From: Eledone cirrhosa
Lineage: Eukaryota
Reading direction: 5' to 3'
Assembly: GCA_964016885.1 (NCBI GenBank)
Contig: OZ024740.1
Span: forward strand, 189,782,001 to 189,846,000
Length of the DNA: 64,000 nucleotides
The notes beneath the pieces are model-generated. The model was not told the origin of the DNA. It ran no database searches and saw nothing but the letters and a program-made list of their open reading frames with translations. Both the position numbers and the translations under genes were made by a program. Of this stretch, positions 301 to 57,047 are shown piece by piece. The first letter of the stretch is position 1. Each line of letters begins with the position of its first letter.

Positions 301-2105
301 ATTATGATTGCAACTTCATCAGTGACAAAAGCATTCGTATTCTGCGTCCATATTCTGAAGGCAGGCGTTTGTCTGTCCTGATGATGACTTTACTATCCCT
401 AGTGCTGTTCCTGTGCACCAGTGAATATTTAAATATACTGACTTACATGTGATGTTAGTTAAGCATTTTTTGTAACGTCATTACTATGTAGAATTGCAAC
501 CCACCATGGATATTGATATATCTCTGTCGTGCCGCCTGATTCATTTCCACCCAAATAATAAACCTGAACAAATTTGGCAAGCTTTTTTGGAAGTGCCAAA
601 AGGTTGCCCAATACCTGAAATATTGCTTCTTTATATATAAATACATACGGAAATATCTATAATTGAATCTAAATAGATTCTTTGCTTCGTAAATCAAAGA
701 TATTGTTACCATTACTTGTCCGAATAGGGAATATATATATGTAATTCTTTGGGTGTTCATACGCTAGTTTTCAGGGTTTAGGCAGACACACAAAATCAAA
801 AACTTTCATTTTTATATATAATGCAAACCATACAATAATGTCACCAGTTTTCACTTACATTTTTCGAATAGAATGTTAACTATGATTTTCCGTGCGTTTT
901 AAAGGTAAGTTATATTACGGTACGGAATCGTTGATGCAGACATATTAATGGCCTCAGTGAATAGTTATTTGGTGGTAACGGACTAGTAGTTATTCATATA
1001 AAATTGAGGGAAGATAGTATTGTTTCTATTACAGATTGTTTAAGACAGCTTGAGTGGCAATCCACAATGCTACAGGTGAGAAATATTTTATTATAATCCA
1101 CCTGTAACTGTCTCTATCATATACTCCTATATAGTGTGCACTCTGAGATATAGTTTCCATGTTTCCATGTTTTGTCTCATTTAGTGGGTATTGGAACGGC
1201 TGCCGCTATATGCATCTTTATTCCACTGACCACATTAACAAATTTATATAATTATATGCATGCTGTTTTACTGGTAACATTTTTGGTTGTTTGGTTTTAT
1301 TAGGCTGGCTTTCTTTGACAGTAAATCGTATAGTATTTTAAGTTTAATTATGCATCTGTAGGTATGAGTGGTTCCGATCTATCGTTGATTTCAATGTTAA
1401 TTTCAGGGTATGTCAGACATAACCCCCTCTCCTCTATTTCGCAATAATATTTTTCTTATAATTTTATTCGTGAGTTGGCCTGTGCACTCATAATTACAGA
1501 TAATAATGCTAGTTAAGTTTATAACAAATGTCGGCTGAACTTGTTTGGAAATTCTATATCATTACATCGAAATGAATTAAGCATGTACTTACGTGTAGCA
1601 TCATGTATGAAGTTACTTAAAATAATTAAACGTGTGGAAGGTAAGATAGTAAGACGTTGAATATTCCAGTTTGTCAATGTTTCAGCTACAACTGTCAGTT
1701 ATATTGGTATCAACGGGAAAATACGACATCAATCCCTAATTTCCATTTATGTGTAATAAAGGCACGGCATATAGCTCTATGTATTTGTGCTACATTTTCT
1801 AGGAAGATATATAGAAAGCGGAGTAATGTATTGTTGTGCATTCCTTTCTCGATATATATTCATGTAAGCCATTGTATTCCGGAAAAACAAATCATTCTAG
1901 ATATATGTACATAAAAAGAACAAACCTAACTGAAACCTACAATGGTTTAAAGAGAAAAAAACATTTTATCAAAAACCCACTCGAAGTAAATAACTGTATA
2001 ATACATGGAAAGATTTCAAACGACAGTAAAATGGATGGAAACATAAGGAAAAAAGAAAAATGAAGTAAAATCAAACACCAAAACGTTTCTGTAATTAAGG
2101 AATAA

Positions 2106-2121
2106 CTCTCTCTCTCTCTCT

Positions 2122-2213
<92 letters not shown>

Positions 2214-2282
2214 ACACACGCACACACACATACACACACACATGTGCGCCCACGCACGCACACACTCACACACACACGCACA

Positions 2283-2317
<35 letters not shown>
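2106..2317. repeat. Compound (CT)n(CA)n(TA)n microsatellite
   Basis: Direct inspection. Representative of dozens of such tracts in the window. Confidence 0.95.
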
Positions 2318-2326
<9 letters not shown>

Positions 2327-4369
2327 ACTTCCAAATATATCCGGAAATTAAAATGAAACGAAATGGAAGTATTTCTCAACACATTATTATGTTCACTGAA
2401 ACATTTCCTATGCATTGCAAAAGGACAGGAGGCTCAATATGTATTGCATTTAGACACTTAATATATCTACATGGAAAGCAGAAACGATTGACTTCATGAA
2501 ATATCCAACAAACAAAAGCAATCAAACTTCAATGTATTTGATGATGTTACAAATTTACTACTGTGTTGAATGTATTGAATGTTTCTTATATTCCTTTATG
2601 CTTTGCGATGTTGTAGGGCTTCCATAATGCACTTACATAATGTGTACTTTGCTTCAATAGCAGCCTTTCACTGAGGATCTTTTAGTTTATGATTAATACA
2701 AACATATTATCCAACCAATCCAGCTTCACTACATTACTTATTGCCACCTATATTAATATGGTGAGGAATAGATATCTGATTAAGAAAATAATATTCATGA
2801 TGCTTAGCGAAGAACGCTCAGTGATTAATACTAATTTAGGCTGGTCGACGACTCCTCTCAAATTTCTATCATATTAGATCGTCTCATTTTACCCGTCAAA
2901 TTAATGGTACGAGAATCAGTATATTGAGAGAAAATTATATTAGTGTGATAGCATTAAACTTTAGTGTAATGAGAGAGGGAATTTAGTTACAGAAATAGGT
3001 CAAACAAAAGTAATAATATATCTAGTCTCATCATATTTATACAGGGAAGGACGGAGACAAATATGATTCTCTGAGAATATTTAACGATATGGAAACATGT
3101 CTGGAGTTGTTGCGTGAACTTGCCAACATTGATTAAATTCATATTACTCATTGTCATAAACTTTTCGCCGCACCACATAATATTTATTCACAAATTAGGA
3201 TTTTTTGGCTCATTAGATTAAGTATGACGGTCTAAATACGACTGTTAATTTTTATAAAGATGACATTCTCATAATTTCCCTCAGTCAGTGTTAGTCAGTT
3301 AAATATAATGATTCAGTTCTTTGGATGTGATACGAATATAGGTTGCAAATAGCAATTGCTTATGTTTCCTATATTACTATGATACTATACAGAGTATCGT
3401 TGATCACATTTTTTGATGACGTGTGCCGTGTAAAACTCAACATAACTTCAATGAGATTAATGAAAATAATGTATAATTCCAGGAATTACTGAATAAAGCA
3501 TCAACTTATTTTCGTTTGGTAATAAAGGAAAAATGATTAAAAATCATTTAAATGTTATAAACTCATATATATGGTATTGAAACTACGGTACAATATTAAG
3601 TTCTTAAACTGAAATACACAACAGGAAAACAATATGTAACCAATGATATGATATACTTTTCAATGTTCTAAATATTATCACCTATAAAAAATTCTTACGT
3701 TATTCTCGAAGAGGAACAAGACAACTATACAACATAGCAAGTGATATAATTATAGCGATCTGTATGACGCTGATATCAAATATTTCCAAACGCATTAAGA
3801 TCTAAGTGAAACATCACTAACACCCCTATAAAAAACGACAAGACGTCCAATACATTTTTCGAAACTCACCATTTTAATACTTATACATATATAAATGACG
3901 CTGTTTGCATTATTGCAAACGAATCGAATATTTTTATCAATATTCGAAAAACTCAGATTACATTTATTGTCCTCAGCCATGTAGAGCGAAAATCTGTTTT
4001 TTTTGTTGTTTTATGAATATGGCAAAGCTGGCCATTTATCGCTCGTATACAGGAGACTGACTAGCCAGCCTTCTAATATGCAAATCTGGCTGATCAGTGG
4101 CTCTGCTAATATGCCGGATCTGCCTGATCACCCAGTCTGCTAATAGGCAAATCAGGATGATCAGTCACTGTATATTTTAAAAAATATCATATATTTTCAC
4201 TAGCTCTGACAGTTGACAGGTGAACAGTGACCTGTACTGATGAAGGGTAATGACCAGAAACATTAGTGTCTGCAGTTCTGTTTACATGCCAATACATGAT
4301 CAAGAATGAGTGGCTCATTCTACTGCAAACAAATCGAATATAATTATTAATATTCGAAATACTCAGATT

Positions 4370-4713: not shown

Positions 4714-5178
4714 TGTTTAGACAAATCACAGAGGCAATAAACATAAATGAACTCCAACCAAAATTAAATAGAAAACATGAATGGAATAGCAACATCACAA
4801 CTTACAATTAAGGACAAAATGAAAAAACACACATACATAGAACAAACAACCAACCAGTAACATGTAAATAAACAAATAAATAAATAAATAAAACACAACA
4901 TAGACACACGGATGTAATGCATGCGCAAACTAAGCACACAACACACACGAAAACAAGATGGCGTAGGACAGAACAAAGGAGAGGCACAAGACAAAGAAAA
5001 TAATCCCGTCACTGAAGAGGTCACATAATGTGTGACGAAAGAATTTGACAATATACGAACAACCGTCCGGTTGTGGAACCAACCAACCAAACGTTGTTAT
5101 TTATAATAAATTGGAGTGAAAGCAACTGGTGCGTGTGTTTCTTATTGGCAACATGACCCTCCCAAAGTATAACAATAT
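4714..5178 (+). mobile_element. 5'-truncated PLE copy (ORF C-terminal tail + 3' pLTR), same family as 54928-57047
   Basis: Closely matches 56553-57047 (tgtttagacaaatcacagaggcaataaacataaatgaactccaacc ... catgaccctcccaaag(t/c)ataacaatat). Confidence 0.9.
5008..5049 (+). ncRNA. Minimal type I hammerhead ribozyme in PLE 3' repeat
   Basis: gtca CTGAAGA g gtcaca-taatg-tgtgac GAAA gaatt tgac. Stem I gtca/tgac, stem II gtcaca/tgtgac, minimal stem III. Confidence 0.75.
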
Positions 5179-9799: not shown

Positions 9800-12700
9800 A
9801 GATTCCACAGTAGAGATAACATATATTTATACATACATGACAGAGAGTGAACATGGGACGCAGAAAACATTTCTCATCTAAATCCCAACGCATGGCAGCA
9901 AACGCACAACGACAAAGAGAGATGAGGGCAAATAAATCAAACAATGATCGCTCTACAGCGCATCCCAACAAGTTTCTACAAATTTAAGTCAGTTAATACA
10001 CCAACAACAATTTGCAACAAATACACCAAACGTTCAGAGAGGAAGGAACATGTCAATTGAAGGTCTGGCAAAGAATCCTACAGATGATCCTTTCCAAGAG
10101 CAAACTGATCTTTCCATAATGCCACAACATAATGCCACAACATAATGCCACAACATAATGCCACAACATAATGCCACAACATAATGCCACAACATAATGT
10201 TTCTGTTTGTCCGCAATGCAAAGCTTATCGCTGGCCAAATGAACCCAAATCTCTGTGATGCTTCTAGGGAAAATTGAAACTCCCTAAACTTCCTGTAATA
10301 TTTCGATATCGTTCAAGCAGGAAATTCCTTTCTCCATAAGATACGGGCATATAGCAATGTGCTTCCATTAGCTTCAATTAGTTGCAAAGAGATTAAAGCA
10401 CCAGGATTTAGTCCCACATTTAAGATCCAAGGTAAGATTTGTCATATTATTGGATCACTACTTCCAAGTGATGCTTCACCCAAGTTTGCGCAGATTTACT
10501 TCTATGATACAGATCATGAGCTTCAGAATCGTTTGCATCATACTAATTTAGATGCTGCTGTCCTGCAGGACATGCAAGAAGACTTTCACTACTGTAACAC
10601 CTATATAAGAAGCTTCAAGGCAGTCATTGAAATGCCAGTCTCTGAACATGTAAATAATGTGAATATTGTCCTACATGGTGACAAAGTAAAAGTGATGTCC
10701 ATTGTCGCACATATAATCTTTCTATGGCATCTGAGATTGCTGTAATTCAACCTGAATCACCATTAGGTCTTTTGGATGTCATCATTCATAAAAAAAGATG
10801 GTGGTCTTCAGAGGATTCATCAGTTCTTATGATCCTCTGCATTATGTGCTACTGTTTCCCTGGGGAATGATACGTTTCAGGCTGGTGTGAAAAGGATTGA
10901 CAGCAACCACACACTCACACCCACTGATTTCTACTGTTATCGGTTTCAGGTTAGACAAGGGGATTGTAACACTATCATGAAGAGCAGGTGGCTGATGTAG
11001 CAATATGCGGTAGATGCCCATCAAAAATAGAATATTGTCGCCTCAAATGGGCCCGCAACACTCAAACCATGATACGAGTTGAAAAGTATGATGGTTTGTA
11101 TGATGCTGTGACTGAATGAGATTCAGTAAATGCAGGCCGGAGAATTGTTCTTCCTCATTCAATCTATGGTTCCCCTCGTTTCTACAGTGAGTGCTTTCAG
11201 AATTTGATGACTGTAGTTCGATACATGGGAAAGCCATCTTATTTCATCACAGTAACAAATAACCGTAACTGGGATGAAATAAACAATATGGTGAAGAAAG
11301 ACCTACCTTATATTTGTGCAAGAGTCTTCAAGATCAAGTATGACATACTGAAAAATAATGTCCTCGGAAAGGTTGACACATTCTGCTACAACAGAGTGCC
11401 AGAAATGAGGCCTCACTCATGCTAATATTCTGCTGATAATGGCTGAAGATAGCAAGCCGAAAACAGATGATTCCATTGAACATGTAATGTACTGTGAGAA
11501 TTTTGATAAAGAGATCAATCCAATGTTGCATAAGATCATCACATCCTGCAACACTAATGACCCATGTGGACAAGCTAATATGATGTGCTCATGTATGGAA
11601 GCGCTAGGACAACAACGCCATTCCTCAAAAAGTTATCCGAAGACATTCAGACAAACCACATTTGTTGCCGAAAATTACTTTCCCGAGTATAGAAGAAGGG
11701 ATAGACAGCATGGTCGTCACACCCATACAATCCAACTTAAAGGTCAAGAATTTACTGTTGATAATCGTTGGATTGTTCCATGCAACCCTTTCCTCTGATT
11801 GAGATATCACTGCCACACCAATTGTGAGGTTGTCCACAGTGTCAAGGCTGTTAAGTACTTATATAAGTACATCACAAAAGGATCAGACAAGAACACTTTC
11901 ACTATTAAGGATGATCAAGGAAAGTGTGTCCATACCCAAACTGTGATTGAGACGGATTCTGGAGAATCTATAAATCTCCATTACCACATTGAAAACCGCC
12001 AGTTGAAAAGTTGCCTTGCCATTTATCTGGGGAGCAAATGGTCGTGTATTAGCGAGGGCAGGAGGAAAGGGTTGTTTCTAGGGAGCAGCCAATGACAAAC
12101 TTGACGGAATATTTTCAACTGAATATTAGAGACCCACTGGTACAAAACATATTGTATATTGATATTCCTAAATATTTGACTTGGACAGACAAAAAGTGGC
12201 AAAGAAGAAAAAAGTGAAACTGGATGGTGATCAACAATTTATGTGTGAATGTCTTGGATGCATTCCAACAGTATCTCTCAGTAGACATCAATCTGAATTA
12301 TATTACCTCAGGATGATCCTGCATCACAAGGCTAGGTCAACTTCATACAAATATTTAGAGACAATTGAAGGAGTTGAATTTCCAGCATTCCAAGAAGCAT
12401 GCAGGAAACTTGGATGAAGATGGAGAAAAAGACAAAGCTATGGAAGAGGCCTCATCCATTATGCTAGGACCTCAGCTGCGAGAGACCTTCTGCACCATTG
12501 TATTGTACTTCATGCCAAATGACCCTCTGCAGTTCTGGGATAAATAGAAGAATTTTCTTGCAGAGGATATCATACATGAGCGTCATGAGCAGGTCCTGTC
12601 CATGCCAACCGTGCAAATTGTTCTACGAAAGATCCAACCAAGACTCTTCAACATGTGGCTTGGACATTCATGACGACTATGGACTTCCTCAGCCATACCC

Positions 12701-14634
12701 AACTATTGTTGCCATACCAGAAATCAACAGTGTTCTTAGGCAGAAACTGATTTCAATACACACCAACTGCAAGCAAACATAAATGAACTTCTGCCAACAT
12801 TGAATCCTGAGCAACTGGTTATTTTTCACAAAGTAATCACCTCTGTAAATAAAAATGAAGGCAGAATTTTCTGCTTGAATGTAAGTGCAGGCACAGGAAA
12901 ACCTATGTCATAAACATCCTATTGGATTACCTCCGATCTAAACAATAATTGCACTTGCTACTTCCATATCTGCAATAGCAGCCACTTTGCTTCGCAAAGG
13001 TAGAACTCTTCATTCCAAGTGCAAGATTCCTCTCAATGTGACTGCTGAATCAACTTGCTTCTTCACAAAGAGGGATGTCACAGATAAACTTATGCAGCAA
13101 GCTGAGCTGCTAATCTTTGATGACATATGTATGGGACATAAGAATATCTTTGAATGCCTTGACAGGTGCTTCAAAGATGTTCGAGATTGCAAAAAGCCAT
13201 TTGGTGATCTAACTGTATTACTATCTGGTGACTGGAAGCAAATTATTCCAGTTGTACCTCATGGTGCTAGACCAAAAACAGTTGAAGACACCATAAAATG
13301 ATCCTATCTCTGGGACTATGTGGGAACCATGTAGATGACAACCAATCAACGGTTAATTAATGCAGAGGATTCTGATGAAAGACACTTTGCAAACTACTTT
13401 CTTGATGGTAACATTCCAACTGTTCCAACATTCCAACTGTTCCAACTGTAGGTGCATTCATAATTCTTCTGCCAAATGAACTTTGTCTGGAATATGGTAA
13501 TATGTCTGGACTGTGAGATTGTGTGGATACAAATCTTCCAGGAAACTACACAAACCCACTATGGCTTGCAAATAGAGCCATTATCACTCCAACACATGAT
13601 GCAGCAAGATTAGTGAATGGGTTCATGGTCAACAAGTTCCCTGGTTATGAAATTAATCTACAGAAGTTCTGATACCGTAGATAATGAATTGCAATATCCA
13701 ATTGAGTTCATCAACAAACGAACCCCATCAGGCTTCCAAACACACATATTTAAACTGAAGAAAGGCAGTTGCATCTTGCTTCTGAGAAATCCGGATCCTT
13801 TAAACGGACATTGCAATGGTACACGCTACATCATCATCCGTTTACATAATCATGTAATTGAAGCTGAAGTGGCATTGGGTCCCAATGCTGGAACAAGGTT
13901 GCTAATCCCAAGGATACCACATGGATCTCAAGAGCTTGAGTTCCCTTTCACGTTTACTCGCAAGCAATTTCCTGTCAAACCAGCCTTACATGCAACAAGG
14001 CACAAAGGCAGACATTTGAAAAGATAGGAGTACATCTACCAACACAATTCTTCTCACATGGTCAGATGCATGTTGTATTATCAGGAGTTAAAAAAAAAAG
14101 AAAATATTAAAATATTAAATGAAAGGGGTCTGTTTGCTGGCAACTGTGACTACAAAGAAATTCTACAGTGATGTGAAAGTTATAACTCTCCTTTAGTTGA
14201 AACGCATTTCAGTTTCCTTTTAATTGCTAGAAAAGAGACAAAACTTTAAGAAGTCTATATGTGAATAGAGCAAAACAACAATATAGTGAAGGTCAAATCT
14301 TCATATTGGTAAATGTAATTAATTCATTCATATCAGCAGCATATATTTTCAAATTCACTGCTTGAAGCTTCCGATCGACATTCCCAAATGAAGATTCATA
14401 AATATTTTCCGTCAACAGTTTCATCGCTTTTCCATCTCCATTATTGCCTATTTTTTAAATCTATCATGTATTACTTTACTCATTACAGAAGTAAGTGTAA
14501 CACAGTCTTTGTTCAGTTTATGTGCATATTGTCAATTTACGTATCATATCCATGTGCATATATATTTGCCTTTATCAATATGCACACTATATATACTAGC
14601 AGAAAACCGCCCGAAAGGGCGGTTCTTCTGCTAG
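9800..14634 (+). mobile_element. Decayed autonomous-type Helitron (Rep + PIF1-like helicase pseudogene); 5' end approximate
   Basis: Frameshifted ORF pieces include FKIQGKICHIIGSLLP..FAQIYFYD, Rep motif 1 GKPSYFITVT..NWDEI, decayed motif 2 ECQK*GLTHA and motif 3 VKYLYKYITKGSD. Helicase motifs are AGTGKT, LIFDDICM, GDWKQIIPV and LLRNPDPLNGHCNGTR. There is a 3' hairpin plus CTAG followed by T. Confidence 0.92.
10115..10199 (+). repeat. 13-bp minisatellite (cataatgccacaa) x6.5 inside the Helitron
   Basis: Direct inspection. Confidence 0.95.
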
Positions 14635-19423: not shown

Positions 19424-20143
19424 TAAGGGTGTCATGTCAGAGAGACATGCGAAATATCAACTGTAGACTATGCTCCAAGATTCCAATGAATAGATCCGAG
19501 CATTTTATATCAACTAGAAATTGATTGACATATATATATATATATATGTAAAATAAACATATGAAACAATCACAAGGAATAATTTGTAAAAGTGTGTAAG
19601 CACACATAGCCAGTTAGGTAACTAATTAAAGTTTAACTAGAACTTTAAAAATAGATACTTTATAAATTGATTAATCTTCCTTGCATATAGTTCATTAAAT
19701 ATATATATATTTCACCATTAATCGATCGGTAAACCACAGTAGCCAAATCACGAATTTTCAACATGGGAGAAGATCTAACTATCTGTGTTTATACAGCAAA
19801 TTCAAATCTGTAAATGACTAGCATTACGTGTTGCATCTTTCAAAATTACACACATCGTACCAGCTCGATTAATGGTGAAATATATTTCTTTAATGAAATA
19901 TATACAAGGAAGATTAATCAATTTATAAAGTTCTAGTTAAACTTTAATTAGTTATCTACTTGGCTATGTGTGTTTACACACTTTTAAAAATTATTCCCTG
20001 TGATTGTTTGACATGTTTATTTTAGAGATATATATATGTCAATCAATTTCTAGTTGATATACAATGCTCGGATCTATTTATTGGAATCTGGGCGCATATC
20101 CTACAGTGGATATGCCGCATGTCTCTCTGACATGACATCTTAA
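19423..20143. repeat. Long inverted repeat (~290-bp arms 19423-19725 / 19865-20143) between (TA)n tracts
   Basis: gtcatgtcagagagacatgc...ttcaccattaatcga versus tcgattaatggtgaaa...gcatgtctctctgacatgac. Arms are moderately diverged. Confidence 0.9.
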
Positions 20144-21125
20144 TTTAATTTTGGATATATATATATATATATATATATACAATGAGGCCTTTGACAACAC
20201 CCCCCAGAACATCTCTGTGTTGAAAAAGGATTATAAAATGAACCAAATACTACGAACACACGATATCATAAAGAGCAAAAGACAATCTAAGTCAATGAAA
20301 AACATCCTAACACATGCCAAAGTACTGCCAACCACAACAACGAAACCCACAGTAAACAAATACGATAGACCCAACTGTGGCATTTGCCTCAACCTAATAG
20401 AGGGTTCGGAATTCTATTTCAATGAAGGACAACGTTTTATAGTAAAACACAATTTCACATGTGCATCGGAAAATCTAATATATGTATTAACTTGCTCAGG
20501 TTGTCGAGAACAATACATAGGCCAGACCAAAAGCAGCCTCCGCCAACGCATGACTGTCCATAGATCCCAAATTAAAATACGGGAATACAGGAAAATACCA
20601 CTGAGTGAACACATTGATACCTGTGTCGCCCAAAATCAACCCAACTTCAGAATCTTTCCCCTCTACAAATTTATAGATAATGCCACCCACACCCAGCGCA
20701 TCAGCAAGGAATCTTACTTTATTAACAAATACGGACCCCGTCTAAACACTTCTCCCTAAGACGAACCGAAAACATACACACGTCAACAGAAATACCTACA
20801 TAAGCACACATATCTACCCACATATAAACACAATGACATACGTAAACACACATGTTCTATGGAGCAACACAAATATATATATATATATAGTGAATATATG
20901 TATATATATATAGTGAATATCATTTAACACCTTTTATTGTTAAGGTTTTTGATGTTCTATTGAGATAATCGATTTTACTGAAAATATCGAATAATGTACA
21001 CCATTTTACCAGGGAAAAAAAATTCTGATCCACCCACACACACACACATATATACACACACATACACACGCGTACATTAACACACAAAAGAGACTTATAC
21101 AAACACACACACACACACACACACA

Positions 21126-25648: not shown

Positions 25649-25717
<69 letters not shown>

Positions 25718-25921
25718 GGGAGGGTCATATTTGCGTAATATTGCCAGAATTAATAACAGAACACACTCACTGTTTGGTTGGTTTTCGCTTCTCGCTGTCT
25801 TTTATATATATATATATCTGCGATCTAACTTACTCGGTCCTCAATGTTGCCATTGACTGACCGGTGGTCAAAAATAAAATAATACAGATACAATATAGAC
25901 AAACACATATATATATAGTTT

Positions 25922-25962
25922 ACATAAATCTTTCGTTGCACATCTGCAACATCGTCAGTGGT
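25922..25962 (-). ncRNA. Minimal hammerhead ribozyme in PLE 3' region
   Basis: Minus strand: ca CTGACGA t gttgca-gatg-tgcaac GAAA gatt TA tg. Confidence 0.75.
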
Positions 25963-26215
25963 GTTATATTCATTGTTCCTCCTGTTGTGTTGTATGTCTA
26001 CGCCATTTTTTTTTGTTCAGTCCGTCTATATATTTATTTATTTGTTTGCTTGTTTGTTTATCTTATTTTATTTTGTCTTCTTTGCGCATGCGTTTGCGTG
26101 TGTGATGTGTGACTAGTGTGTATAGTGTTGTGTCTGCTGGGTGACTAGTGTGTGTTTATGTGCTTGTGTATGTATTTATTTATCTTATTTTATTTAATTT
26201 AATTTACTTATTTAT

Positions 26216-28009
26216 TTATACTTCTCTTAGGTCAGTGTTGTTTGTTTGGGTGTTGTTGTTGTTCCACTCATTCTTTCTGTTTAGCTTTGGTCTTCTAATT
26301 TCTATTTCACTGGCCTCTCTGATTTGCCTATCTGCTGGGTCATTCCTATGTTTAGATATTATTCTAATTTCTATGTTGTCTATGTTACCGTCATGATGTT
26401 GTCTAGCATGTTCGTATAGTACTGACCCGTTTTTTCGTCCTTTTAGTTCCCCCCAGTGTTGGTCTATCCTTTCACCTATGCTACGAGCTGTCTCACCTAT
26501 GTATGTTGTTGTCGTGTTTCTACAAGTACCCTCTGTACATCTTATGCTATAGACTACGTTTCTAGTTTTACAGTTTATCCGGGGGTTCACCTTACATATG
26601 ATACATTTCCTATTGGTACAGTGGGTTTTCTTAAAAGGGTAGGTTTTGCTGATCAGGGATTTTATGGTGGTTCCTGGCTTTTCTACCACCTTTATTTTTA
26701 AGTGGGTCTTTCTCAGGGCCTTTCTACACTGGTTAGCTAATTTCCCTCCAGGGGTGGCGTCCACAAACATGACACTCTGATATCTCTGGTTGTCGTACCA
26801 TGATGTGGCCTTCCCTATCTTATGTCTAGCCCTATCTAAGCTATTCCATGATTTGCTCCTGTATAGTGGGCAAATTCCTTTCATGTCCAGTTCTATGAGG
26901 GTCTTATACTTTTCCATGGCTCCTTCGTATACTCTGACTCTGTCTCTTTGGTTGTAGCCAGAGAACTGCATGCGGTTGATGAAGTGTTGGATGTGTCCTT
27001 CCATTTCTGTTGGGTCGCACATGCTGGACACATTCTTCATCACTCGTACCAAATCTGCGATCAGAATATTAAACTTAGCACTACTGGACATTGCTGAGTT
27101 TTTGAGTATCAGGTATTTGGAGGCCATGGGTTTAGCATAGTGTGAGTGGAGAATTTGGGCTCTCTCGTCTATAGTGTTAATCCAGAGTTCTGTGTCTAAT
27201 ACAGGTAGTCTATTGTTAGGGTGTTTGGAAGGGAAGTCTATAGTTACAGTTATACTCTGGTGTATGGAATTAGCTATCTGCTGGATGCTTTCCATCGTGC
27301 TACGTTCTAAATCAAACTTGTTAGTGCTCTCTAGTGGGGGTGTTCTTATAACTATATTGATATCGTCTACATAACGAGAGTACATGATGAGGTCTATGGA
27401 GCTTTCATTAAGGAGATCTTTAAGTCTCCTTTCCCACCATACCATGAAAAGGTTGGCAACATCGCCAGCTATGCTGACGCCGATGGCTGCTCCCTCATTT
27501 TGGGTGTAGATTTTCTCATTGAACTTAAATATGTGGCCCTTTAGGGTAGTTTTGATACTAGCCCCTATTGCATGTGCGACCATTTTTCTTACCTGATCAG
27601 TGTTTTGGGGGGTCCGTATAGCTTTGGTCCACCCAATCCACCTTCCTATGGGAGTCTTTTTAGCCATTGAGGTTATGGTGGGGGGTCTACCTCTTATAGG
27701 TCTACTAGGGCAGAAACATCTAAGGTCATGGCTGTCTAGGTAGTCAGTGTCGTAGGTAAGTCTAAGTAGGAGGCCCAGTTCGTCTGTGTCGACGTCGCAG
27801 AACTCCACCTCACTCTCAATGATCATCTCCACACATCTTTTCACAGCAAAATCAATGTTAATGGATGGGTACAGTGACACCACATCCATGCTGCCTATTA
27901 TGCAGTTGGATAGGCTCCTGTTTTTGTTGCACTCACTGATTCTGCTGAGGAGGTCCTCTGTACTTTCACATACATCTGGGGACATCTTGATTATGGGGCG
28001 TATAACCAT
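26216..28009 (-). CDS. PLE polyprotein: reverse transcriptase + C-terminal GIY-YIG endonuclease (597 aa, N-truncated; frame stays open to ~28100)
   Basis: SMDVVSLYPSI, YTQNEGAAIG, YSRYVDD, LPVLDTEL, Cys-rich linker C..C..C..CKTRNVVYSIRC, YIGETARS..ER..H, RQIREA..I..P.LN. Confidence 0.93.
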   Translation of the reverse strand: MVIRPIIKMSPDVCESTEDLLSRISECNKNRSLSNCIIGSMDVVSLYPSINIDFAVKRCVEMIIESEVEFCDVDTDELGLLLRLTYDTDYLDSHDLRCFCPSRPIRGRPPTITSMAKKTPIGRWIGWTKAIRTPQNTDQVRKMVAHAIGASIKTTLKGHIFKFNEKIYTQNEGAAIGVSIAGDVANLFMVWWERRLKDLLNESSIDLIMYSRYVDDINIVIRTPPLESTNKFDLERSTMESIQQIANSIHQSITVTIDFPSKHPNNRLPVLDTELWINTIDERAQILHSHYAKPMASKYLILKNSAMSSSAKFNILIADLVRVMKNVSSMCDPTEMEGHIQHFINRMQFSGYNQRDRVRVYEGAMEKYKTLIELDMKGICPLYRSKSWNSLDRARHKIGKATSWYDNQRYQSVMFVDATPGGKLANQCRKALRKTHLKIKVVEKPGTTIKSLISKTYPFKKTHCTNRKCIICKVNPRINCKTRNVVYSIRCTEGTCRNTTTTYIGETARSIGERIDQHWGELKGRKNGSVLYEHARQHHDGNIDNIEIRIISKHRNDPADRQIREASEIEIRRPKLNRKNEWNNNNTQTNNTDLREV

Positions 28010-28096
28010 TGAGAGGAAGTAGGAGATCCTGTAGTTGCTAGCTATATTAGCTCCGCATACAGGTCTTGTTGGTGGTCCTGTTGTCGGGTCGTCGAC

Positions 28097-28542
<446 letters not shown>

Positions 28543-28560
28543 CATATATATATATATGTA

Positions 28561-29030
28561 TAAGAGTGGGAAATGAAATTTCGTTTCATTATTTCCGTTT
28601 ATCGTTTTCGGTGCACCCGGCCGATTAACCCACTCGATATGCAAATTGGGCTACTCAGCCGTTAATATACATAAGGTAAGTATATACGTTCAATAATATG
28701 GCAGGAAGGTATACGTTGCTGACGATAGCTAATAAGCTTGAAACTAGAACAGCGTTTCTTTGTCAGTGTTGAACAAACGAGCAACGGTGGTTGCTAGACA
28801 CTACGGCTTAATACAGGATGTTTGTTTACAAACACACCGAGCATTATAATATATGTTCGGTGAATCTATACGCACATATATATATGCGTGCATGTATGTA
28901 TATATATATATATATATATACATACTACTGTGCGTCTGTATACATATATGTATGTACGTGTACATACTTATATTTAAGTAACAGCCGTACTAAGAGTGGG
29001 AAATGAAATTTCGTTTCATTTTTTTCCGTT

Positions 29031-29033
<3 letters not shown>
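28561..29033 (+). mobile_element. Retrozyme-like module: 430-bp unit plus ~42-bp repeat of its start, flanked by (TA)n
   Basis: taagagtgggaaatgaaatttcgtttcatt.tttccgttta occurs at 28561 and 28991. There is an internal HHR and a second family copy at 52541-53189 (minus). Confidence 0.8.
28714..28754 (+). ncRNA. Hammerhead ribozyme (U16.1 mutated)
   Basis: cgttg CTGACGA t agct-aata-agct t GAAA ctag aA cagcg. Confidence 0.65.
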
Positions 29034-29126
<93 letters not shown>

Positions 29127-43892: not shown

Positions 43893-45077
43893 TATATATA
43901 TTTATATATACATATATGTGTGTGTGTGTGTGTGTGTTTGTGTGTATGTGTGTGAGCTGTATGTGTGTTTAACTGTGTCCATCACTTGAAATATGATATG
44001 TGAAAATACATTTATATTAAAACAAAGTCAACTGCTGATTCACACATACGTAAACTATTCACCTATATATGACACCATTCACTAGAATCTGACGGACACG
44101 CAGGTCCTTCTGAAATATGAAACCATCCCCCTGGCCCCAAAAATATAGATAATAATTTGCACTAATAGGTTCCTATTATTTAATTGGACTGACGTAACGT
44201 AGCTGAAACTATGTTATCACTCATCTATTTATTCGAAATATTTAACCCCAAAACGAGTCGACAACCCCAGTAATGAAAGAAGGGAATCCATATGCCCAAC
44301 CAATATGTAACCGACTAAATACGATTATAACCAGCATAAACAATACAAAGCAACCAAGCATGAACACAAATTGGAAAATTCATAACAGCGAAAATGCTAA
44401 CATGAGCTTGCCCGTTATACGTACTGGCTTTAATCTACATCAGTGACTTTCGATAAGGTAGCCTACTTATAAATTAGCTTCAATAATTCCAATTTGAAGA
44501 ATGTTCTTACTTTTAGTCTCTTTTTATTTATATATTTTCTTCCGTATATCATATTTTATCTTTGAAAATTATAATTACTTATATTCTTCATTTTCCCATC
44601 TGAATTACTTAGTTAACCAAAACTCTAATGCAGAACCTTTTAAATCAACGTTAACTCAAGTTCGTAATAACATACCTTGGCTAAAATCGCAATAATGTAC
44701 TTGATATGGTTATGAGATCAAATGAATGACATACAATATAAGAGTAATTTAGAAAATATTCGAAGGAAAAATCCACCAGCCTTCACAACAATTGTATGTA
44801 TTTCATCTATTTCACTTGGTGCAATGATTCGACGATATTTTAAGACTTTGGTTGGCGTAATTATTATTTTGAGGTATCCCGTCCAAGAAAAAAATACTAT
44901 GAAAAAATAATATAAATAAAGACGAAAAATGTAGTTTCTAAAGATGCAATTTTCAATGGCATCCATAATTTAGAGTGTCCTATAGAATGCATTAAAATAA
45001 TGTAAAAATAAACCTTAATGGTATGCTTAAATCTTAATTAATAGCCTACTGTAACATGGCGTAAACTATTCAAGATT

Positions 45078-45870
45078 ATAATAATGGTTTCTACTTTTGG
45101 CACAAGGCCAGCAATTATCCCAATGTATTACTAGTACTTTATTTTATCGACCCCGTAAGGATGAAAGGCAAAGTTAACCTCGGCTATTCAAGATGATAAT
45201 AATTGTTTCTACTTTTGGCACAAGGCCAACAATTACCCAGTGTATTACTAGTACTTTATTTTATTGACCCCGTAAGGATGAAAGGCAAAGTTAACCTCGG
45301 CGTGATTTGAACTCAGAATGGCAAGATATATGCGTCAAAGCATGGCGTCCGAGCCTCTACTGATACTGCCAATCCACCTGGTAATAATTGTTTCTAAATT
45401 AGGCACATGGCCAGCAATTACCCAGTGCATTACTGGTTCTTTATTGTATCGACCCCGTAAGGATGAAAGGCAAAGTCAACCTCGGCGGGATTTGAACTGA
45501 GATCGTAAAGGGACGTAACTATGCTGGAAAGCATGGCGTCCGACCATCCACCGATACTGCCAATCCAGCTGATAATAATGGTTTCTGATTAGGCAGAAGG
45601 CCAACGCTTTTGGGGGAGGAGAGAGTCGATAAAGTCAACCCCCTGCATTACTGGTGCTTTATGTTATAGACCACATAAGGATTAAATACATTGCTAACCT
45701 CTGCGGGATTTGAACTCAGACAATAAAGAGACATAACTATGCAGCAAAGTATATGGTTCGATTCTTTACCAACAATGCCAATCCAACATCCTAATAATAA
45801 TGAAAATAATTGTTTCTACTTTAGGCACAAGGCCAGAAATTAACCAGTACATTACTGGTACTTTATTTTA
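45078..45870 (-). mobile_element. Tandem cluster of about five full or partial tRNA-derived SINE copies
   Basis: Repeated ataattgtttctacttttggcacaaggccagcaatt...tcgaccccgtaaggatgaaaggcaaagttaacctcggc.ggatttgaactcag. The reverse strand has a B-box-like gagttcaaatcc. Confidence 0.85.
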
Positions 45871-52255: not shown

Positions 52256-52447
52256 GGGCGGTGGATTGGTAGTATCGGTAGAGGGTCGGACGCCATGCCT
52301 TGACGTATAGAGTTACGGCCTTTGCCATTCTGATTTCAAATCCTTCCGAGGTTAACTTTGCCTTTTATCCTTACGGGGTTGATAAAATGAAGTACCATTA
52401 ATACACTGGGTAATTGCTGGCCTTGTGCCAAAAGTAGAAACAATTAT
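52256..52447 (+). mobile_element. Full-length SINE copy
   Basis: ggcggtggattggtagtatcggtagag...ttcaaatcc...ttgctggccttgtgccaaaagtagaaacaatt(ta)n. Confidence 0.85.
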
Positions 52448-52467
52448 ATATATATATATACACGATA

Positions 52468-52516
<49 letters not shown>

Positions 52517-52540
52517 GATAATACAATATAATATACATAT

Positions 52541-53062
52541 ATAAATGGAAAAAATGAAATTTCATTTTTCACTCTTAGTGCGGCTGATACTTAAATATAA
52601 GTATGTATACGTACATACATATATGTATACAGACATACAGTAGTAGTTATATATACACACATGCATACATATATATATACGTATGGGTTTACCGAACATT
52701 TATTATAATGCTCCGTTTGTTTGTAAACAAACAGCCCGAATTACGCCGTACAGTGTTCATCAACCATCGTTGTCCATTTGTTCAACACTGACAAAGGAAC
52801 GATGAAGTAGTTTCTAGCTTATTAGCTGTCATCATCACCGTTTACGTTCCTGTCAGCCGATTGGACGTTTGAAAGTATATACTTTCCTTAAGCATATTAA
52901 CAGCTGAGCAGCCTAATTTGCATATCAAGTGAGTTAGTCGGTCGGGTGTACCGAAAACGATAAATGGAAAAAAAGGAATTTCATTTCTCACTCTTAGTAC
53001 GGCTGTTACTTAAATATAAGTATGTATACGTACATACATATATGTATACAGATATACAGTAG

Positions 53063-53118
<56 letters not shown>

Positions 53119-53189
53119 CATGCACACGTATATATATGTACGTTTGTGTTAACCGAACATTTATTATAATGCTCGGTTTGTTTGTAAAC
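52541..53189 (-). mobile_element. Retrozyme-like module, ~1.5 tandem units (unit ~419 bp); decayed HHR at 52800-52840
   Basis: Unit boundaries at 52541 and 52960 (ataaatggaaaaaa..aatttcattt.tcactcttagt.cggctg). It is the reverse-complement homolog of 28561-29033. Confidence 0.82.
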
Positions 53190-54498: not shown

Positions 54499-54812
54499 CA
54501 ATATTTGAAGTACAAGATAGTGACCTCGACGGTCAACTTCCATTGGGTATATATATATTGAGTGAGTGTGAAAGACCAAAGGTCATTAATGAAAGTATCT
54601 GGATTTCGCAATATACATAATATTATTTATTGGAGAAGGTAAGATATTTTTCCGCAAAAATTTGATTGCACTGTTTTGCTTCCAGTTGTGTCTTTTTCGA
54701 AAATGTTATTTATTCATTATAAAAAGTAAACGATTGCATTCTATATGTAGGTGCGTCCCCTTCATCTCCTGGCAACCAATAAGTTTAGACTCTGTCCAAC
54801 GTTGTATGTATG

Positions 54813-57047
<2,235 letters not shown>

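Follow-up and report, generated by a model that had tools for sequence, protein, structure and literature searches.

A non-LTR retrozyme family of Eledone cirrhosa with two fixed 3' ends, one-tailed head-to-head insertions and probable mobilisation by a PLE

The DNA surveyed in this study (the window) is a stretch of 64,000 nucleotides from Eledone cirrhosa (assembly GCA_964016885.1, contig OZ024740.1, positions 189,782,001 to 189,846,000 of the forward strand). It carries two copies of a tandemly repeated element bearing a hammerhead ribozyme, here called copies A and B, together with a truncated PLE. The relevant features, in window positions, are:

25715..28099, minus strand: 5'-truncated PLE, a candidate helper, with a 627-aa frame (26216-28099) holding RT and C-terminal CxxC/GIY-YIG motifs
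28446..28560: (TA)n target flank, 5' of copy A
28561..29033, plus strand: retrozyme copy A, 473 bp, 1.10 units, period 430, subfamily A, ending at site 2
28698..28767, plus strand: extended stem I around the hammerhead, with compensatory changes between subfamilies
28714..28754, plus strand: type I hammerhead of copy A, C3 at 28719, cut after 28749, GAA replacing GTA
28899..28920, plus strand: internal (TA)11 tract of copy A, in a long TA/TG hairpin
28969..29030, plus strand: PLE-type tail of copy A, between site 1 (CATACT, then TATAT) and site 2 (CCGTT, then TAT)
29031..29122: (TA)n target flank, 3' of copy A
52445..52543: degenerate (TA)n flank, 3' of copy B
52541..53189, minus strand: retrozyme copy B, 649 bp, about 1.5 units, period 419, older subfamily B, ending at site 2
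52800..52840, minus strand: damaged hammerhead of copy B, C3 position at 52835, C3>A, G16.2>C, cut site after 52805

Hammerhead residues (C3, G16.2, 10.1-11.1) are numbered by the usual convention. In self-comparison, bases 1-42 of copy A recur at 431-473 with 95% identity; bases 1-230 of copy B recur at 462-649, the period of 419 being taken from alignments of the two copies, which are about 80% identical. The lengths of 1.1 and roughly 1.5 units given in the initial annotation are borne out by these measured periods, and the (TA)n-like tract that it placed inside the unit is the (TA)11 run listed above. The shared 3' terminus that it described, ...TTTTCC(G/A)TTTAT followed by a TA run, is likewise present in both copies, but proved to be just one of two ends used by the family. 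The single hammerhead per unit of the annotation was also found, and is of type I, but both cores are damaged. Since each copy holds only this one damaged ribozyme, no monomer could be released from either.

The hammerhead of copy A comprises stem I (CGTTG/CAGCG), the core CTGACGA, stem II AGCT, GAAA and a palindromic CTAG helix III; its cut triplet is GAA, against GUA in the family. In the common haplotypes the core, stems I-III and the NUH are intact, with a helix III of 2 bp and the G10.1-C11.1 pair replaced by U.U or C.A. An intact family copy scored 19.2 bits (E 0.009) against Rfam HH9, for which the gathering threshold is 52, and an Rfam search of the whole window gave 117 matches with no hammerhead, only microsatellite-driven miRNA matches. 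With its short helix III, core substitution and score below gathering, the family ribozyme looks weak on paper. Dimer cleavage has been described for hammerheads with a helix III of 1-2 bp and a palindromic loop (available text of PMC4209133), and eight of nine Xenopus retrozyme dimers were reported without cleavage (available text of 10.64898/2026.07.22.740005).

Across an alignment of eight common haplotypes with copies A and B, 97.7% of stem cells are paired and two double-sided changes occur, related sequences being able to pass the shuffle control used for stem-pair retention. None of 11 core columns varies among subfamilies, compared with 56 of 306 elsewhere, a difference that is not significant alone (P ~0.11). 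Changes acquired after insertion number 4/612 in the core against 138/14,285 in subfamily A, and 4/243 against 198/9,029 in subfamily B; slower core mutation after insertion was set aside as evidence because the signal is weak and the motif finder biases it. The predicted circular fold has a z-score of -9.1 against 60 shuffles, which the self-complementary TA/TG tracts inflate.

In the whole 3.0-Gb assembly, the exact 31-nt ribozyme pattern was matched 25,525 times, a lower bound on the hammerhead motifs of the family, and its reversed version not once; a looser pattern gave 27,265 matches, again with none for its reversed control. Four subfamilies were recognised, with natural units of 424, 429, 430 and 466 nt (about 500 with longer TA tracts), 86-95% identity and a GC content of 0.36-0.38. 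The longest ATG frames (60-112 aa) are largely low-complexity and differ from subfamily to subfamily, so that no ORF is conserved in the units of the four, as the initial annotation had held for the unit. In total, 166 arms were mapped in 114 merged regions, and nine pieces of a rearranged array (L063) were dropped. Of the remaining 157, 79 were chosen by position, within the first 22 Mb of contig C1, and the other 78 belong to top-hit loci. The ends of mapped arms are not terminal repeats. Arrays of two or more units, which had been proposed as something to look for, are common enough: 18 of the 79 position-chosen arms hold at least two hammerheads, and arrays of 13 and at least 33 units occur. 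The largest (L063-L064, G000:C12:20419000-20438999) has 33 cut sites in 16.6 kb, with internal deletions and higher-order repeats, and 33 is a minimum as the array extends beyond the fetched stretch.

Tandem hammerhead units without a conserved ORF or terminal repeats agree with the proposed non-LTR retrozyme identity, and the element is a new member of that ordinary class. Metazoan non-LTR retrozymes are described with units of 150-450 nt and GC below 45% (PMC7229834; 10.64898/2026.07.22.740005, each available in part), and circles have been shown in coral, mussel and axolotl, with PLEs named as candidate helpers (available text of PMC7229834). The Eledone family resembles them in its tandem non-coding units, single type I hammerhead, GC of 36-38% and lack of LTRs, as well as in its thousands of copies, stable self-paired predicted circular fold and co-occurrence with PLEs. 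It differs in a unit of 424-500 nt, at or above the described range, and in that no pLTR homologue was found among the PLE loci sampled. A microsatellite target, two fixed ends and a one-tail rule are not mentioned for non-LTR retrozymes in the portions of these papers at hand, and the word 'microsatellite' does not occur in the available text of PMC7229834. In openly accessible sources, with subscription journals and Repbase outside the scope, we found no literature that deals with this family or describes a retrozyme tail; the family may already carry a repeat-library name.

With unit position 1 set at the base right after the ribozyme cut, the 3' ends of the 79 position-chosen arms fall at site 1 (~213) in 38 cases, at site 2 (~274) in 32 and elsewhere in nine; for the 78 top-hit arms the corresponding numbers are 28, 36 and 14. 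The site pairs of the four subfamilies are 213/274, 215/271, 243/307 and 212/272, i.e., two 3' ends lying 56-64 nt apart and 212-307 nt past the cut. Each site lies directly 3' of a long predicted hairpin, and both abut 3-5 nt of TA. TA follows 64 of the 70 canonical 3' ends of the position-chosen arms, which upholds the view of (TA)n as the target, and TA runs of at least 10 bp occur at the 3' end of 58 of the 79 arms against 9 at the 5' end. Target-site duplications, which in non-LTR retrozymes exceed 4 bp when they occur, are unreadable in such flanks. The 5' ends of the 157 arms, by comparison, are scattered over all unit positions. Fixed 3' ends, scattered 5' ends and TA polarity together indicate reverse-transcribed insertions with internal priming.

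The same observations make it hardly credible that the element is a minisatellite spread between TA tracts by DNA duplication or recombination with no RNA step. Such an origin would suit the higher-order repeats, the spread of a variant along one arm (L128, L101, L063) and the duplication of a whole insertion at L132, but it does not account for the fixed and scattered ends, the TA polarity, the retroelement-like one-tail rule or the dispersal of copies over many contigs. DNA-level duplication explains only the later growth of arrays. The further suggestion that the element seeds microsatellites was partly sustained: the internal TA tract reaches at least 30 bp in 13 of 79 arms, but its median is 14 bp. 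One other repeat was observed inserted in this tract at L023 and L070 (L015).

Many insertions are paired head to head. Among 61 such pairs, both ends are canonical in 41, and in 38 of these one arm ends at each site, so that one arm has the tail and the other lacks it. The exceptions are two pairs with both arms at site 2 and one with both at site 1; among them, the L040 pair joins two subfamilies and is probably two separate insertions. When the duplicated L132 insertion is counted once the rule holds in 37 of 40 pairs (P ~1e-8). It was replicated in loci fetched later, where 15 of 35 pairs have both ends canonical and 14 of the 15 are mixed (12 of 13 without doubles, P ~0.002). In nine of the 38 mixed pairs neither arm is contained in the other, which indicates that both arms were templated by RNA and that simple fold-back does not account for all inverted arms. 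In 33 pairs (two with different rulers being left out), the two arms of an insertion disagree at 24 of 296 subfamily sites, compared with 4,009 of 11,629 for random arms, and thus come mostly from a common template or source. Some inverted junctions are symmetric at hairpins (L010, L101, L114). At L132, the entire head-to-head insertion occurs twice, flanks included, and in one arm the sequence passes from one sub-subfamily to another between positions 255 and 408.

As to mechanism, the second 3' end together with the one-tail rule provides the best evidence. The scattered 5' ends, the inverted arms and the simple repeats flanking the 3' end are also LINE-like, as would suit a SINE-like sequence mobilised by a LINE, its inversions being due to L1-type twin priming. 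In twin priming of that type, the second arm begins at variable internal positions and does not overlap the first, whereas the second arm of the retrozyme has a fixed end and overlaps its partner, and this origin is accordingly judged most improbable.

A PLE is a better match for these ends. The truncated window PLE has its own hammerhead near 25958 and ends at its site 1 in the (TA)n at 25653-25714. An intact copy elsewhere in the genome (L311) is a 4,130-bp unit with a 1210-aa ORF (554-4186), which contains RT and C-terminal CX4CxxC/GIY-YIG motifs and a long Asn-rich insert. A first look gave 36,082 candidates, and each of the 150 genomic matches that were scored shows full identity over 150 aa; this PLE is thus very young and abundant. 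Its linker points to the Neptune/Nematis type, PLEs with a C-terminal GIY-YIG and a CX2-5CxxC linker, as delimited in the available text of PMC8557442. In 30 loci examined, it ends 211 nt past its hammerhead in 16 and 270 nt past it in eight; in three loci the end falls 14 nt short of site 2, and three others continue in tandem. Nearly all of these ends run into TA, the tail is 59 nt, and in seven of seven head-to-head pairs one arm carries it and the other does not. In addition, PLE head-to-head arms were seen with equal open-frame lengths (797/797, 701/701, 627/627, 553/553, 489/489, 255/255 and 187/187; e.g., C1:121124528/121128811, C1:271516844/271520313 and C2:30597414/30600639), which suggests symmetric junctions.

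No homology links the two elements: a global comparison of the retrozyme with the 1210-aa PLE scored no higher than 300 shuffles, and blastn gave no match at E<0.5. A pLTR homologue was found neither in the 4.1-kb PLE nor among the matches listed at 60 other GIY-YIG loci, where the top matches listed are whole retrozyme copies at locus edges. Related window PLEs have shorter distances from hammerhead to end, other TA-targeting PLE families exist, and the agreement of 211 with 213 nt may be chance. For these reasons, the 1210-aa PLE is treated as a candidate helper. A 784-aa GIY-YIG family was also considered for that role and rejected, as similarity was not seen and its 3' region is CA-rich.

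These comparisons also bear on the idea that the unit represents a pseudo-LTR, the copies being 5'-truncated ends of an autonomous PLE. The tail, the inversions and the TA target are all as in PLEs, and Xenopus retrozymes are reported to resemble pLTRs (available text of 10.64898/2026.07.22.740005). Upstream of the hammerhead, however, lies another unit and never an ORF. The initial annotation had named extension of longer copies into a PLE ORF as one of the observations that would count against its reading, and this was seen in none of 157 arms; a piece of PLE ORF lies within 700 bp of nine of them, and in none is it 5' and in sense. As homology to the 4.1-kb unit was not found either, this possibility is largely refuted and is regarded as very improbable.

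Similarities to Neptune/Nematis-type PLEs, as characterised in the available sections of PMC8557442, extend to partial tandems, an inverted 5'-truncated partner, a tail often at one end only, a (TA)n bias and a hammerhead upstream of the 3' end. The retrozyme differs in having no ORF and in a tail of ~60 bp instead of 30-40 bp, a length that does match the 59-bp tail of the resident PLE. In vitro, two internal start sites delimit the PLE tail (PMC11167929, available in part). The retrozyme resembles PAc Poseidon of Anolis, the subject of that study, in its two start sites past the hammerhead and read-through of an uncut ribozyme. The sites of PAc are described in the same text as having no target homology and no strand difference in vitro, whereas those of the retrozyme abut TA and are used one per end.

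Judged from genomic copies, the retrozyme has very probably been mobilised by a PLE, and its ends with the one-tail rule are unusually clear evidence, at the genome level, for such mobilisation through internal priming at two sites. The earlier case for PLE helpers rested on co-occurrence and pLTR similarity (PMC7229834 and 10.64898/2026.07.22.740005, as far as their text was available). Here, a footprint of PLE priming is found in tens of thousands of retrozyme copies, beside a young intact PLE with a matching footprint.

Whether the template is a circle, as the initial annotation proposed, is a separate matter. Exact copies of the first 25 nt after the cut number 8,498; in 18 both preceding bases are non-native, and 12 of these are true starts. 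A control site 12 nt further gave 24 non-native cases and 15 true starts, its denominator not being counted. TA-preceded variants at the cut number 181 (preceded by ATATA in nine), and none of the 30 checked is a start. This genome-wide count replaced a test for 5' pile-up at the cut in the 157 arms (three against 4.1 expected), which is blind to monomer run-off copies. As starts are not in excess at the cut, the template had no free end there and was either ligated or uncut.

Of 900 subfamily sites compared between units of the same arm, 866 are concordant, against 7,620 of 11,629 for random pairs, and rare variants are common to the units of an arm ten times oftener than in random arms. One insertion of 13 units and an inverted arm (L061) has zero scored differences. 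Elsewhere, a variant is present in six of seven segments of one arm alone (L101), two diverged units alternate as A-B-A-B-A (L128), and L120 has a dimer pattern; each of these three patterns would fit turnover of the DNA itself or templates of dimer length. Arrays are also made homogeneous by amplification at the DNA level (L101, L120, L128, L063), and such visible turnover rules out long arrays as proof of rolling synthesis. Two clear chimeric arms were found (L132, L067), none with a clear crossover at the cut, and they are uninformative as a sign of ligation. A joint that 'goes back 430' in contigs of four sequencing runs is the tandem junction only.

The circular template of the initial annotation is therefore consistent with the missing run-off at the cut and with one haplotype per arm, but an uncut multimer fits these too. 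A copy longer than one unit is in itself not diagnostic of a circle, since PLEs begin reverse transcription at internal positions of their RNA and can use RNA that has not been cut (PMC11167929, available in part), and the resident PLE is tandem too. Copying of more than a unit from a circle had already been proposed (available text of PMC4209133), and the idea of a retrozyme circle is also in print in PMC7229834, of which part was available. An alternative that we hold to be a real possibility, though short of even chances, is two-site PLE priming on uncut linear multimers transcribed from homogeneous arrays, in which the ribozyme seldom cuts and DNA duplication regenerates the arrays. Uncut RNA was the main substrate of the one PLE assayed in vitro, and mutation of the hammerhead does not impair insertion (PMC11167929, in its available part). 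The arms with at least two hammerheads, and arrays of 13 to at least 33 units, are possible sources; DNA turnover is seen, and run-off at the cut would be absent if the RNA stayed uncut. This alternative requires every source array to be homogeneous, however: in subfamily C, the units of an arm disagree at 0 of 20 polymorphic sites, and no ordered discordance is clearly found again at a second locus. It also leaves the kept ribozyme fold unexplained in an ORF-less element, unless the fold is a protein-binding site. Given mobilisation by a PLE, a circular RNA template is thus modestly favoured from the pattern of copies.

The mechanism that we propose, copying of the retrozyme into (TA)n by a PLE-type protein, probably from circular monomer RNA, is put at about an even chance as a whole. 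Tandem transcripts would cleave themselves, probably in dimers formed via the CUAG palindrome, and the monomers would be ligated into circles. The PLE protein would then cut TA DNA and prime both broken ends on RNA, one per start site, aided by 3-5 nt of UA pairing. Each reverse transcriptase would pass the ribozyme and drop off at random, and the two cDNAs might join at their far ends via unit hairpins or microhomology, the loss of one leaving a solitary arm. The arrays would be reshaped later at the DNA level. A stricter version, which seems rather unlikely, is that a PLE RT-endonuclease dimer cuts the TA repeat and primes both ends on one circular RNA, each at its own fixed site on either side of the 60-nt tail, and that both enzymes roll past the ribozyme junction. 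If it were true, the PLE tail, the head-to-head insertions and the copies longer than a unit would be explained in one step, and the intact 1210-aa PLE would be the first helper to be identified for an animal retrozyme. These data bear on how animal retrozymes insert and on whether circles made by hammerheads template PLEs. Circle and uncut multimer are directly testable against each other with one protein, a 424-nt RNA and (TA)n as the target, and the strict rule of one site per end constrains models of PLE integration in general.

Other elements were also observed in the window. At least five other hammerhead-like families occur (4229, 5004, 28235, 30221, 42549, 56845, 61210 and 61538), most with a TA run within ~250 bp downstream, and from the hammerheads at 5004 and 56845 the sequence continues into the beginning of a PLE ORF with kinship to the 1210-aa element. 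A broken RT/GIY-YIG relative of that element lies at 54751-56650 (plus strand). The GIY-YIG domain at 20136-20759 (plus strand) belongs to another young PLE, the 784-aa ORF family with a long CA-rich 3' region, for which 18,365 candidates were counted; five tandem units of this family at C2:359.52-359.53 Mb have one common 363-aa open frame. Fragments at 10299-14027 (plus strand), including a Pif1 2B domain at 13617-14027, are probably a decayed Helitron-like element. Finally, a SINE-like repeat, which may resemble octopus SINEs, is present at 45066-45301 (with a 117-bp tandem at 45066) and at 52260-52430.
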